From an uncultured virus (IMG/VR IMGVR_UViG_3300033112_000355) (Duplodnaviria; Heunggongvirae; Uroviricota; Caudoviricetes): DNA of 20,000 nt. Positions 17,994-20,000 of the stretch are shown here, one piece after another. Under the pieces are notes generated by a model. That model ran no database searches and was not told the DNA's origin. It worked only from the letters and a program-made list of their open reading frames with translations. Within the stretch, counting starts at the first letter, position 1; the number at the start of each line of letters is the position of its first letter. The translations under genes were made by a program, and so were the position numbers. The DNA is taken from the IMG/VR virus record IMGVR_UViG_3300033112_000355, one strand, 5' to 3'.

Positions 17994-19980
17994 TCAAATC
18001 GTGCCGTCGTCCTGAACAAAGCTGAATGCAGTGGTGATGAAGTCCTTGTTGAGGATTTCGAAACCAGCATAGAGTTGCCAGATAAGGATGATGAACCGGC
18101 TGAAGTCATCATTGTTGTTAATGAGGACTTGAGCGTTGGGGCCGCCGATACCAACACCGATGGACTGAGGACCGAAGAAGTAACCCTGAGCAACTTCCTT
18201 GGAGGCATAGCTGCTGCCGCCATCGAAAGAGGTGGTGACGTTCTTGGTGGGGAAGTTCGTTGACTCGTAGAACTTGACACCTTCGAACTGCACGCCGGTA
18301 GGCATGACTGGCTCACCAGCCAGGAAGTAGGCTTGGCCAGCCTGAGGACCCATGTAGAAGCTGGAGTTATTAGGCATCATGGGGTTGCCCATGTACATGC
18401 CTTGTCCAGGATTGCCACTGTAGCGAGCGATCTCGCGGAAGTCCTCGTCACGACGCAGGTGCATCATGAAGGTGGGATCGCAGATACAACGATACAGACC
18501 GTCAGCGAAAGTCGGCACGTTGCGCTTACGCATTTGCTTGACAACAGTCAGCAGGTCGGTACGCACGGAGAACTGCTGAACTTGAGCAGCATACTCAGCA
18601 GCGGTGTAGGAAATACGGCCAGTGGCATCCTTCTCTTTGCTGCCAGCAAAGTAGTAACCACCGATGTCATCAGAAGCCGCGCCATTGGCTTCAGCTTTGG
18701 CCATTTCGTCAATGAAGACGCGGTCACGCCAACGACGATAATCGTCCAGCAGAGTCAGAGAACCGATGCTCTGGTGGAACATGTTCAGGTTGCCGGTGTC
18801 TAACAGCAGGCGCTGTGCAGTCACCAGGGTCTCCCGGGCAATTTTAAAAGTAGAAGGCTGGGTAGGATCGCCAGGATCTGCAGGACCAGTGTACTCCTTC
18901 AGCACAACAAGCACCTTCTCCTTGGTGATGTTGCGGCTGTTGGCGGTACCGATGGTCTGATCGGAGACGCGCTCACGGCTCTCCTTGGTTCCAGGGGTTC
19001 CCCAGAACTTATAGCGGTCTAGCTGAACGGTTTGACCGGGCTGGCGAGTGAAGTCATGAACGACCACAGGCTCAGCGGCCATCTCGCAGATATAAGCGGG
19101 GTGAGGGCGGTAAAGCTCAGCACCTAGCAGTTTTGGAAAATCGTTCTCCTGGTCTCCAATTTCTTAGAGGGGTGGACCATCTCTTCATCCCAGTGGGATG
19201 CCGGACGCTGTATCTGGTATTACGTTACAAGATCGTGTAACCCCCAGTGGCCTCTGCACGTTCCAATCACGGGCTTGATTGGCTTCGCTCAGGATTACCC
19301 TCGGCTTTACGTTAGGGCTTCCCTGAATTCATCCAGTTTTCACTTAACGATTGCTCGATAAGGTGACAACGCTTGAGAAGTTCAGGTGAGGTAAAATTTG
19401 GAAACTTGTTCATAAACAAAATGAATCCAAAATTAGTTTCGGGATTTGGTAACCTCTACTTGACTGAAACTGGTAAAGCTTTTGAAAAACACCTGGACAA
19501 AGATGACCAAGAATATTTTCAAGAACTACCCGTACAATCCACTAGCAAATATGATCGAATCTCAGTTCTTGTTGACGGTAAAAGAAAAAGATTTAATTTA
19601 CACGTTTTAATGGCGGTTGCTTTCTTAGGTTTAGACTTGCGGTCCCATGGGACACACAATTTTTCTTTACAAGTTAATCACATAGATAACAATAAAAGAA
19701 ATAACAATCTTAATAACTTAGAGATTGTTACTAAACAAGAAAACCTTACAAGGACCTGGATCGAAAATGATCAAACTCACAAGGGTTTTGCAAGTAAAGG
19801 GAAGGCGAAAAAATCACTTAGGAAATTTTCAACCGAAGATGTGATTCAGATTAAAGCTTTAAAAGAAGCTGGTCTCTCTTATAGAAAGATTGCTGAAAAG
19901 TTTAACTGCAATCACGGAGCTATTTACCAAATGCTGAAAGGAAATACCTACCAGGATCTGAACTAGCTATCAATGAACAC
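17994..19980 (-). CDS. Major capsid protein, spliced: exon 1 19969..19980 plus exon 2 17994..19145, 387 aa
   Basis: GGAGG (19991-19995) lies 10 nt before GTG TTC ATT GAT. The joined product is MFID-NDFPKLLGAELYRPHPAYICEMAAEPVVVHDFTRQPGQTVQLDRY. Size, PG.TV motif, GVQFEGVKFYES motif and codon bias fit an HK97-fold capsid protein. Confidence 0.85.
19146..19968 (-). ncRNA. Group I self-splicing intron, 823 nt
   Basis: The 5' exon ends in U and the intron ends in G. Core elements: P GAAUUCAGGG (19321-19330), Q AAUCCUGAGC (19287-19296), R GUGCAGAGGCCA (19248-19259), S GAAGAGAUGGUCC (19174-19186). P1, P3, P7, P8, P9 and P10 pairings were checked by eye. Confidence 0.93.
19421..19966 (+). CDS. Intron-encoded HNH homing endonuclease (I-HmuI/HNH_3-like) with C-terminal HTH, antisense to the intron
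   Basis: LHVLMAVAFL...VNHIDNNKRNNNLNNLEIVTKQEN plus HTH GLSYRKIAEKFNCNHGAIYQM. ATG 19421 is preferred, with TAAAAT 23 nt upstream. Confidence 0.9.
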   Translation: MNPKLVSGFGNLYLTETGKAFEKHLDKDDQEYFQELPVQSTSKYDRISVLVDGKRKRFNLHVLMAVAFLGLDLRSHGTHNFSLQVNHIDNNKRNNNLNNLEIVTKQENLTRTWIENDQTHKGFASKGKAKKSLRKFSTEDVIQIKALKEAGLSYRKIAEKFNCNHGAIYQMLKGNTYQDLN

Positions 19981-20000
19981 TTTGGTTTATCCTCCAGTGT

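Follow-up and report, generated by a model that had tools for sequence, protein, structure and literature searches.

A very probably mobile group I intron carrying an opposite-strand HNH endonuclease cassette in the major capsid gene of an S-EIV1-like cyanophage

The interrupted capsid gene and its intron

The window, that is, the whole stretch of 20,000 nucleotides analyzed here, is from an S-EIV1-like cyanophage. Its major capsid gene lies on the minus strand and is interrupted by an intron after codon 4, 12 nt from the start codon. An endonuclease gene of the opposite strand lies wholly inside the intron (19968..19146, minus strand). The features of the locus are as follows.

19990..19995, minus strand: capsid ribosome-binding site (RBS) GGAGGA, read from the sequence; the same GGAGGA and spacer precede the start codon in intronless relatives
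19969..19980, minus strand: capsid exon 1, a 12-nt micro-exon, GTG TTC ATT GAT (M F I D), delimited by intronless alleles
19146..19968, minus strand: group I intron of 823 nt, with the 5' splice site after U19969 and the terminal G at 19146, from Rfam and intronless alleles
19966..19972, minus strand: 5' strand of P1, formed by exon UGAU and intron AGC, pairing with 19370..19364
19958..19964, minus strand: 5' arm of the closing helix, AGUUCAG, complementary to the two final HNH codons plus the T that begins the stop codon
19421..19966, plus strand: HNH homing endonuclease gene, 181 amino acids, I-HmuI-like, from Pfam, PHROG, and PDB matches
19406..19419, plus strand: palindrome TTGTTCATAAACAA abutting the HNH start codon, from the sequence and pair counts
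19392..19397, plus strand: -10-like hexamer TAAAAT of a putative HNH promoter, a conserved TAnnnT
19379..19385, minus strand: 3' arm of the closing helix, CUGAACU, pairing with AGUUCAG
19364..19371, minus strand: internal guide sequence CGUUGUCA, of which GUUGUCA is the 3' strand of P1, from the sequence and pair counts
19341..19363, minus strand: P2 hairpin with a GCAA tetraloop, from pair counts
19153..19340, minus strand: catalytic core (P3 to P9), which has 38 nt inserted between P7 and P3', from the Rfam alignment
17994..19145, minus strand: capsid exon 2 (N D F P K L L to the stop codon), from phrog_1357 and the S-EIV1 capsid ORF

Exon 2 matched the major head protein family phrog_1357 in a PHROG search (E = 2.4e-13), and the capsid showed 84% amino acid identity with the capsid ORF of S-EIV1. 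Both splice sites are fixed by intronless relatives, in which exon 2 follows exon 1 with nothing in between. The reading is GTGTTCATTGAT and then, without a gap, AACGATTTTCC at most of the 63 IMG/VR loci that lack the intron; S-EIV1, also intronless, has the same direct junction, with ACCGAC there instead. Contigs of run X19 likewise carried the intronless junction, as loose ends, at exactly the inferred splice positions. An alternative pair of splice sites, after AUU and after G19149 (giving M F I E N D), was rejected because the intronless alleles read GAT AAC; the splice-site U after AUU would moreover pair with A.

The intron was recognized by the Rfam model RF00028, which matched 19385..19153 (minus strand) over its full length (model positions 1 to 253) with 81.2 bits (E = 1.4e-19; gathering score, 50), while the introns of relatives scored 88 to 94 bits. 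The core showed 73 to 75% identity with the intron cores of Klebsiella and Vibrio phages. The 5' exon ends in U19969, and the terminal G19146 stands directly before exon 2. The P2 hairpin is backed by changes on both sides in four of its seven pairs (alignment A2, described below). Public sequencing data from four of the 24 runs identified were compared, as contigs that carry no strand information. Parts of the intron and the HNH gene were covered unspliced by the RNA-library contigs X4 and X2, with no joint across the intron seen, and RNA-library contigs ran unspliced across the exon 2/intron and HNH/exon 1 borders.

The P1 extension and the endonuclease cassette

A first-pass annotation of this DNA had placed an HNH ORF on the plus strand, antisense to the intron and the capsid gene, between the 5' splice site and the internal guide sequence, with about 570 nt looped out of P1. 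This layout was borne out at the same coordinates. P1 consists of a 7-bp stem, then an internal loop, and then a helix of 6 to 7 bp with the HNH cassette at its tip; the loop between the arms of this closing helix (19957..19386) measures 572 nt, with the guide sequence close behind the helix.

Pair counts for these helices were made on a second alignment, A2, because in A1, made with MAFFT, the group to which the window belongs was misaligned at columns 601 to 635. A2 holds 41 of 52 sequences, leaving out L008 and the 10 sequences that form the window's group; those absent from A2 are included in a table of all 53 sequences built on anchors. In the 40 distinct rows of A2, all seven P1 pairs were formed in every row, the splice-site U19969 standing opposite G19367 as a U.G wobble. 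The pair at position -4 covaried (UA in 35 rows and CG in 5, the latter a single clade). The sequence CGTTGTC of the guide was invariant in all 53 sequences. The segment CGUU (19371..19368) could pair with AACG of exon 2 as P10, a pairing proposed from complementarity because these positions are invariant.

The guide nucleotide of P1 pair -4 could pair within P2 instead.

The closing helix proposed earlier (AGUUCAG, 19964..19958, with CUGAACU, 19385..19379) is more than a product of chance, judging from its conservation: all six core pairs were Watson-Crick in all 53 distinct sequences, and two of the six were changed on both sides (GC in 35 rows and AU in 5; UA in 35 and CG in 5; 40 distinct rows of A2). 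These compensatory changes fall in three lineages (L121, L146 to L149, and L150). The dual use of the 3' end of the ORF was upheld as well, since one strand of the helix is the complement of the last HNH codons, CTG AAC, and of the T of TAG.

The annotation had named a different guide sequence near the 5' splice site as something that would place the ORF elsewhere. That the guide lies outside the proposed position, with the ORF not in P1, is very improbable. Two other candidates were considered, GUUUAUGAACA at 19417..19407, which pairs with exon 1 at 10 of 11 positions in the window, and UCAA at 19376..19373, which pairs with exon UUGA and in which U-A becomes U.G in L121, L144, and L145. The former was rejected because it shows no covariation with exon position -7, opposite which many relatives have C.A or U.C, and because it is part of the palindrome, in the loop of which its variable bases fall. 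The latter was rejected because a C faces the splice-site U in all but L150 and because L139 and L140 lack one A. Either candidate stands on the 3' side of the ORF in the intron RNA; whichever were the guide, the ORF would still separate it from the splice site.

The HNH ORF runs from ATG 19421 to TAG 19964-19966. Its product matched Pfam HNH_3 at residues 83 to 108 (28.7 bits; cut-off, 24.8), phrog_59, "HNH endonuclease" (E = 1.2e-24), and, as the closest solved protein, I-HmuI (PDB 1U3E; E = 1.3e-4) over residues 42 to 175, a span that takes in both the HNH motif and the helical C-terminal part. In this alignment QVNHIDNNKRNN, the motif region, stands opposite VVDHKDGNKDNN of 1U3E, and the C-terminal region aligns with the C-terminal part of the same protein; matches there to HTH_38 (25.4 bits; cut-off, 27) and HTH_23 (18.7 bits; cut-off, 24.6) were below the Pfam thresholds. 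I-HmuI, an intron-encoded phage HNH enzyme from the DNA polymerase intron of SPO1, has its gene on the strand of the intron itself and nicks a single strand. The present protein differs from it by a low sequence identity, by the other orientation, and by the other host gene. With the HNH protein as query, tblastn gave no match at an E value of ≤1e-5 among 50,697 phage records. The GC content is 0.33 to 0.39 for the HNH gene and about 0.54 for the capsid gene.

The ORF was intact in all 52 distinct relatives, where it always stops at intron position +3 to +5, and the dN/dS values had a median of 0.097 and a maximum of 0.20 (1,027 pairs). By these ratios, the nuclease is under strong purifying selection.

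As first annotated, TAAAAT (19392-19397) lies exactly 23 nt ahead of ATG 19421. It falls neither in the ORF nor in a base-paired segment. The further claim that it matches a motif seen across the window did not survive counting: TAAAAT occurs 23 times (23.6 expected; 112 of 200 shuffles reach 23) and TGNTANNNT 27 times (47 expected), so these counts at or below expectation give no window-wide motif. The conservation among relatives is another matter, a TAnnnT ending 22 to 26 nt ahead of the start codon in 52 of 52 sequences (32 distinct upstream regions). Its middle bases vary, and most copies are preceded by TGn; those without TG have hexamers closer to the consensus (TAAAAT, TATGAT, and TATTAT). 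The window's own hexamer has no TG extension, and its sole -35-like box, TTGAGA, is 12 nt away. Since the TAnnnT is kept at a set distance in every relative and no other plus-strand gene near the HNH gene could supply the transcript, it is likely that the HNH gene has its own promoter. This part of the first reading therefore stands as likely, even though a scan with the sigma-70 consensus called no promoter before the HNH gene in L082 or in L099. L082, a viral contig 100% identical to the window over capsid, intron, and HNH gene, was also used beyond base 20000. ATG 19421 is not preceded by a Shine-Dalgarno sequence. The palindrome TTGTTCATAAACAA was 97.5% paired at its five pairs, none of which was changed on both sides (A2), and may be an RNA hairpin or a protein-binding site.

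Distribution, mobility, and role of the cassette

The survey of homologous capsid loci that the annotation had suggested revealed all three states. Among 80 IMG/VR capsid loci, 63 were intronless, 14 carried intron and HNH gene, 1 carried the intron only, and 2 had an intron cut upstream by the end of the contig. The intron with the HNH gene was found at 70 loci and the ORF-less intron in 16 contigs. In 69 of the 70 HNH loci the intron core lies directly beside the start of the HNH gene, on the other strand; the remaining one is cut by the contig end. In the ORF-less introns the P1 extension ends in a covarying hairpin cap, and one locus, L159, is a deletion derivative of a cassette like that of L144.

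Intron-bearing capsids differ among themselves by up to 22%, and the exon 2 DNA of an intron-bearing locus (L102) and of an intronless one (L072) is 98.8% identical. The capsid tree, a FastTree tree of a recombining gene on a sample chosen partly for HNH presence, has at least 10 intron gains or losses (93 distinct exon-2 sequences). This patchy occurrence of the intron on the tree argues for its mobility. The window and locus L084 showed 94 to 100% identity from the HNH gene through the core to about 450 nt into exon 2, and 73 to 85% thereafter; within exon 2 the identity was 97 to 100% over about 450 nt, a pattern that general recombination would also give. In run X19, intronless alleles occurred together with the intron form in one sample. 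From these comparisons, the intron of this capsid gene is very probably a mobile element of group I, whose P1 extension holds, on the opposite strand, the HNH gene with its putative promoter.

The states found make up a very well populated natural series of a single intron: 52 distinct forms with the ORF, ORF-less introns, one recent deletion derivative, and intronless targets. The gene that harbors them is, of all late genes in this widespread lineage of cyanophages, the one expressed most highly. Such a series opens tests of how an endonuclease gene invades an intron loop, of which is the greater cost in its orientation (ribosomes on the intron RNA or antisense RNA), and of splicing with the start codon merely 12 nt from the 5' splice site.

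Under the mobile-intron reading, the nuclease would be transcribed by the host RNA polymerase from its own promoter, independently of late capsid transcription, and would nick intronless capsid alleles in co-infecting relatives. Repair would then copy the intron and flanking exon sequence into the nicked alleles. The backwards orientation could hold ribosomes off the intron RNA, so that translation of the nuclease could not unfold P1. The price would be an mRNA complementary to the P1 loop and, past the stop codon, to the capsid start codon and RBS.

The nuclease might instead be kept mainly as a weapon that cuts the capsid gene of co-infecting relatives, with or without transfer of the intron. 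Competition of this kind between co-infecting phages has been reported for an intron endonuclease of phage PhiPA3, in the account given in PMC11620839, and it would suit both the strong purifying selection across capsid backgrounds up to 22% apart and the presence of intronless alleles beside the intron form in run X19. Nothing observed separates it from plain homing, however, and the recombination tract shared with L084 fits gene conversion; we regard it as unlikely, if worth keeping in mind.

The first-pass annotation had also proposed a regulatory role, in which the transcript of the nuclease gene, being antisense, pairs with both the P1 loop and the capsid start, controls splicing or capsid translation, and thereby couples homing to late timing. 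The geometry is suggestive: the HNH stop codon is 2 nt from the 5' splice site and 3 to 14 nt from the 12-nt exon 1. The first strong plus-strand hairpin lies about 105 to 140 nt past that stop (in L082, identical to the window), and a transcript reaching it would be complementary to the capsid start codon, RBS, and leader. In addition, the capsid promoter faces the HNH gene (in L099), implying convergent transcription. Yet this overlap follows simply from the position of the cassette, and the existence of introns without the cassette (16 contigs) and of capsid loci without the intron (63 of 80) implies that capsid expression needs no such control. This regulation is therefore improbable, and it would add to the explanation by a mobile intron rather than replace it. 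Improbable too is a further reading, in which the cassette is more than a passenger and acts as a built-in early-to-late switch that confines homing to the replication phase and delays capsid synthesis until the nuclease is shut off. With the promoter within the internal loop and extension of P1, and an mRNA complementary to the P1 loop of 572 nt as well as to exon 1 (12 nt) and the RBS of the capsid gene, early nuclease transcription and late capsid transcription would exclude each other, by convergent transcription, double-stranded RNA, and loss of P1.

That the ORF is a decaying passenger that has lost its expression, as the missing Shine-Dalgarno sequence and consensus promoter call and the ORF-less derivatives (L159 being a clear deletion) might suggest, is scarcely credible, being contradicted by the intact ORF in 52 of 52 relatives with its median dN/dS of 0.097, as well as by the fixed start and stop positions and the conserved -10-like element.

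Related introns with endonuclease genes

A capsid intron with an antisense HNH gene is not in itself a new kind of element. The layout is real and widespread at the present loci, and it has one earlier report, in mycobacteriophage LittleE (Pope et al. 2013, PMC3706429). The first-pass annotation had taken phage intron endonuclease genes to lie normally on the strand of their intron; the antisense orientation itself was confirmed here, but it is less unprecedented than implied, given LittleE and the nuclear rDNA introns with antisense endonuclease genes described in PMC3073962. In a review of bacterial group I introns (PMC3984707) the words antisense, opposite, and orientation are all absent, and our literature search found no account of the present cyanophage capsid intron.

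As described for LittleE (PMC3706429), the major capsid gene is split by an intron of approximately 0.8 kb, probably of group I, exon 1 terminates in U and the intron in G, intronless relatives exist, and a homing endonuclease ORF (gene 14) lies on the bottom strand and is transcribed in the opposite direction. Splicing of that intron was demonstrated by RT-PCR and N-terminal protein sequencing, whereas the present one is known from sequence comparison. The LittleE ORF is likened to a LAGLIDADG enzyme in the text but called HNH in the legend of Figure 10; the one found here is an I-HmuI-like HNH. The passages on the LittleE intron give no structure, promoter, or place of the ORF in the fold; here the ORF lies in the P1 extension, 12 nt from the start codon, with a stop codon overlapping P1. 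LittleE is moreover a single isolate, compared with 70 metagenomic loci and 16 ORF-less forms.

Outside phages, the gene of I-DirII, from a nuclear rDNA intron of Didymium iridis, is also antisense to its group I intron and, according to PMC3073962, is expressed from its own promoter, which in our case is putative. By the same account, I-DirII differs in belonging to eukaryotic nuclear rDNA, with a promoter for RNA polymerase II and with a spliceosomal intron and poly(A) tail of its own, in being a His-Cys box enzyme, and in having a host gene that is not protein coding. The L2066 introns (PMC9548176) belong beside I-DirII in this comparison.

Among cyanophages, the DNA polymerase intron of Pf-WMP3 encodes I-PfoP3I, and its description (PMC3428280) states that, until then, an endonuclease-bearing intron in a protein gene of a cyanophage had not been known. 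The I-PfoP3I ORF, in another host gene, is treated there as part of the intron transcript, an opposite orientation going unmentioned in that description. The resemblance lies in a cyanophage intron that encodes an HNH endonuclease, which nicks in the case of I-PfoP3I, and in the subgroup IA structure with elements between P7 and P3'.

Capsid gene and intron borders

The last 2 kb of the window are related to Synechococcus phage S-EIV1. In translation, the ORF at 17997..19151 on the minus strand gave a single S-EIV1 genome match (84% identity, residues 2-385) and matched the PHROG family "major head protein" (phrog_1357, E=2.4e-13). The only Rfam family in the whole window was a complete group I intron at 19385..19153 on the minus strand (81.2 bits, with a gathering score of 50; E=1.4e-19). 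The S-EIV1 capsid ORF is intronless; it starts with GTG TTC ATT GAT ACC GAC TTT and is preceded by the same GGAGGA. Of 599 confirmed IMG/VR capsid loci, the best 80 comprised 63 intronless ones, most of them with GTGTTCATTGAT followed directly by AACGATTTTCC; 14 carried the intron and an HNH gene, 1 (L057) the intron without the HNH gene, and 2 (L019 and L032) the intron with the upstream side lost at the contig end. On the minus strand of the window, GTGTTCATTGAT lies at 19980..19969 and AACGATTTTCC begins at 19145. Since the intronless alleles join these two sequences, exon 1 is a 12-nt micro-exon. It ends in U and the intron in G, the bases that group I splicing requires at these positions. 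An alternative splice pair (after AUU and after G19149) keeps the frame but does not reproduce the intronless sequence, and was rejected.

19980..19969, minus strand: exon 1, 12-nt micro-exon, from intronless alleles
19968..19146, minus strand: group I intron, 823 nt, from intronless alleles
19972..19969 (exon UGAU) and 19968..19966 (intron AGC), minus strand: predicted 5' strand of P1, pairing with GUUGUCA
19370..19364, minus strand: predicted 3' strand of P1, guide GUUGUCA, with G19367 opposite the splice-site U
19421..19966, plus strand: HNH ORF, ATG 19421 to TAG 19966, 181 aa

In one sequencing run (X19), contigs ending exactly at both intron borders continue into the other exon; intronless alleles are therefore present in the same sample. 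Four of 24 listed runs (two RNA, one doubtful, and one of unknown kind), all consisting of contigs without strand, starts, or ends, were compared with positions 1500-3700 of L082, a contig identical to the window over the capsid gene, intron, and HNH gene. RNA-library contigs spanned the exon 2/intron and HNH/exon 1 borders unspliced, and no contig in the four runs joined the exons across the intron, which in unstranded contigs is compatible with the presence or absence of splicing and of antisense transcription.

The literature searched gave no account of this cyanophage intron. The capsid gene of mycobacteriophage LittleE has an 819-bp intron, probably of group I, whose splicing was shown by RT-PCR and N-terminal sequencing and which, like the one described here, carries an endonuclease gene on the opposite strand (PMC3706429). 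One published phage capsid gene thus already has the backwards layout, described in the available part of that report without structural or population analysis. In three loci (L107 at 1124-1915 on the minus strand of the locus, L123, and L141), the capsid gene has a further insertion, about 0.9 kb long, following codon 48 or so, with a 263-aa ORF on the capsid strand (Pfam LAGLIDADG_2, E=1.3e-20) and no second Rfam intron at the gathering threshold, so that a single capsid gene carries two endonuclease genes, one in each orientation. Vibrio phage 1.187.O (L169, MG592553) has a related intron core (73.5% identity) in a terminase gene annotated as three pieces, with a GIY-YIG gene just upstream on the same strand.

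The P1 extension and its loop

The closing helix proposed by the first-pass annotation, AGUUCAG (19964..19958) with CUGAACU (19385..19379), is real. Its six core pairs are Watson-Crick in 53/53 distinct sequences of an anchor-based table (52 ORF-bearing introns, including that of the window, and L057), with compensatory changes in three lineages: AUUCAG/CUGAAU in L121, ACUCAG/CUGAGU in L146-L149, and GCUCAG/CUGAGC in L150. As also claimed there, one arm is formed by the two HNH codons preceding the stop. Pairs were counted on an alignment (A2) of 41 of the 52 sequences, in 40 distinct rows; it omits L008 and 10 sequences of the group to which the window belongs, because MAFFT had misaligned them in the earlier alignment A1. 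The four named helices had 99.5% of cells paired, reached in 0/500 shuffles, and two-sided changes in 7 pairs, reached in 8/500; sliding the partner strand by 1 to 3 columns left at most 46% of cells paired.

On these comparisons, the model that fits is a canonical P1 with the guide GUUGUCA (19370..19364). Every pair of P1 forms in each of the 40 rows; the outermost one, U-A in 35 rows, is C-G in the 5 rows of the L146-L150 clade (exon ATC GAT, guide GUCG). This covariation is suggestive rather than decisive, because it comes from a single clade and the guide base could alternatively pair in P2, a hairpin with a GCAA loop and two-sided changes in four pairs. CGUU (19371..19368) is complementary to AACG, the first four bases of exon 2, giving a predicted P10. 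Two other guide candidates were rejected: 19417..19407 is part of a palindrome and does not covary with exon position -7, and UCAA (19376..19373) places C opposite the splice-site U in all sequences except L150. In the intron RNA, every guide candidate lies on the 3' side of the ORF, which is thus flanked by the 5' splice site and the guide; the loop holding it, at the tip of the P1 extension, measures 572 nt (19957..19386). Both points agree with the first reading, which had about 570 nt looped out of P1.

Exon 1 GUGUUCA (19979-19973, including the start codon) can also pair with minus-strand UGAAC(G)C (19384-19378), which shares bases with the closing helix on its 3' arm. When cut-down constructs were folded to minimum energy, this pairing prevailed in the majority type (L076, L017, and L121), and it may act as a rival fold that conceals the start codon.

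Allele states and mobility

All three envisaged states, without intron, with the intron only, and with intron and HNH gene, exist. The HNH search gave 70 full-length loci (58-100% identity), and in 69 of them the intron core directly adjoins the HNH start on the opposite strand; the remaining one, L118, ends at a contig edge. A pattern scan gave 16 intron-only contigs (L153-L168; 11 distinct sequences) with 19 to 27 nt between the helix arms. In ten of the 11 ORF-less forms, the P1 extension is closed by a small hairpin with covariation in its stem (AAACAAA/UUUGUUU, AGGCAA/UUGCCU, and AAGCAAU/AUUGCUU); these may be ancestral or descend from one old deletion. The 11th, L159, retains the last HNH codons and helix-adjacent sequence of an L144-like cassette, and is therefore a fresh, clean deletion of such a cassette.

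Exon 2 of L102, with intron and HNH gene, is 98.8% identical in DNA to that of the intronless L072, while intron-bearing capsids differ among themselves by up to 22.4% (median identity, 83%). A FastTree phylogeny of 93 distinct exon 2 sequences (45 with and 48 without the intron), from a sample partly chosen for HNH presence and a gene that recombines, needed at least 10 changes of intron state; label shuffles needed 29 to 33 in the first five of 200. The window and L084 are 94-100% identical across exon 1, the HNH gene, the core, and the first 450 nt or so of exon 2. Over 17994-19145 the breakpoint about 450 nt into exon 2 is sharp, with 97-100% identity on the intron side and 73-85% beyond. 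This looks like a conversion tract; ordinary recombination would give the same picture.

The antisense HNH gene and its expression

The HNH product matches Pfam HNH_3 (28.7 bits; cutoff, 24.8), shows a weaker helix-turn-helix signal at the C terminus (HTH_38, 25.4 bits, under the cutoff of 27), and has phrog_59, "HNH endonuclease," as its top PHROG (E=1.2e-24). The nearest solved structure is I-HmuI (1U3E, E=1.3e-4; query 42-175 against chain residues 37-159). The G+C content of this gene is 33-39%, compared with about 54% for the capsid gene and about 50% for the core. The ORF is intact in 52/52 distinct sequences (181 codons in 47 and 176 in 5), with a start at a constant position (ATG in 46, GTG in 6) and TAG as stop in all. 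Over 1,027 pairs with dS>0.05, Nei-Gojobori dN/dS was 0.097 at the median and reached at most 0.20. These ratios indicate strong purifying selection on the protein, which on this evidence must be made.

The stop occupies intron positions +3 to +5, its G complementing the last base of P1. CTAG (19963-19966) reads TAG on both strands, ending the HNH ORF on the plus strand and falling in the capsid frame on the minus strand (GAT AGC TAG); translation of the precursor therefore halts six codons in, at the helix foot. Position +5 is A, G, or T in ORF-less introns and A in 52/52 ORF-bearing ones, as predicted by a stop-codon constraint.

In nuclear rDNA group I introns, an endonuclease gene that runs antisense and has its own promoter is an established arrangement (I-DirII, PMC3073962). 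In the cyanophage intron, an own promoter is likely. Between about 11200 and 19373, the plus strand has no further ORF of at least 100 aa outside the capsid antisense frames, so read-through from a neighboring gene is unlikely. A TAnnnT hexamer ends 22 to 26 nt (mostly 23) before the HNH start in 52/52 sequences (32 distinct upstream regions), with a variable middle (TATGCT, TACAGT, TATAGT, TAAGCT, TACACT, and others), a pattern that we take to reflect selection for a -10 element. TGn, the signature of an extended -10, stands before most copies; those without TG (the window's group, L136, and L008) are nearer the consensus (TAAAAT, TATGAT, and TATTAT). The majority type has a -35-like TTGAGC 17 nt upstream of the hexamer, inside the P1 internal loop, and the window only TTGAGA, at 12 nt. 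Three results speak against this. A simple sigma-70 scan called no promoter before the HNH gene in L082 or L099; that scan did pick up the opposite-strand promoter of the capsid gene in L099 (GTGACA-18-TAAAAT with TG); and the window has 23 copies of TAAAAT where 23.6 are expected, so the suggestion that it recurs there as a motif falls.

At the sequence level, the comparisons establish the intron, its splice sites, P1 and its extension, a live nuclease gene, and natural polymorphism. In the mechanism that we propose, the -10 element of the HNH cassette would direct its transcription by host RNA polymerase, the I-HmuI-like product would nick intronless capsid alleles, and repair would then copy the intron into them. 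In T4, translation of intron ORFs must be restrained, or intron folding is disturbed. A review of bacterial introns describes intron ORFs reaching core sequences as tightly controlled (PMC3984707). The backwards orientation would remove this conflict and bring another, the nuclease mRNA being a full complement of the P1 loop. On the precursor, a ribosome would sit over the 5' strand of P1 (the start codon is 12 nt from the splice site), which would make splicing and initiation on the same precursor mutually exclusive. The phage may, as the first-pass annotation suggested, use the antisense overlap for timing, but ORF-less and intronless phages show that such control is not needed for capsid expression.

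On the HNH strand, the first strong hairpin comes about 105 to 140 nt past the stop (L082 3150-3183), in a region folding with z=-4.9; a transcript reaching it would therefore also include the complement of the ribosome-binding site and start codon of the capsid gene. This hairpin (GGAGGGG..CCCCUC plus UAUACC/GGUAUA) separates the capsid promoter from the upstream gene and is likely a two-way terminator. Another hairpin (L082 3104-3117) lies in the capsid leader immediately before the ribosome-binding site, both being beyond the window end (window 20000 is L082 3080). The palindrome TTGTTnATnAACAA (= TTGTTCATAAACAA), at 19406-19419 on the plus strand, adjoins the HNH start codon in all sequences and varies only at its two central "n" positions, with no two-sided covariation; it could be an RNA hairpin in a short leader or a protein-binding site.
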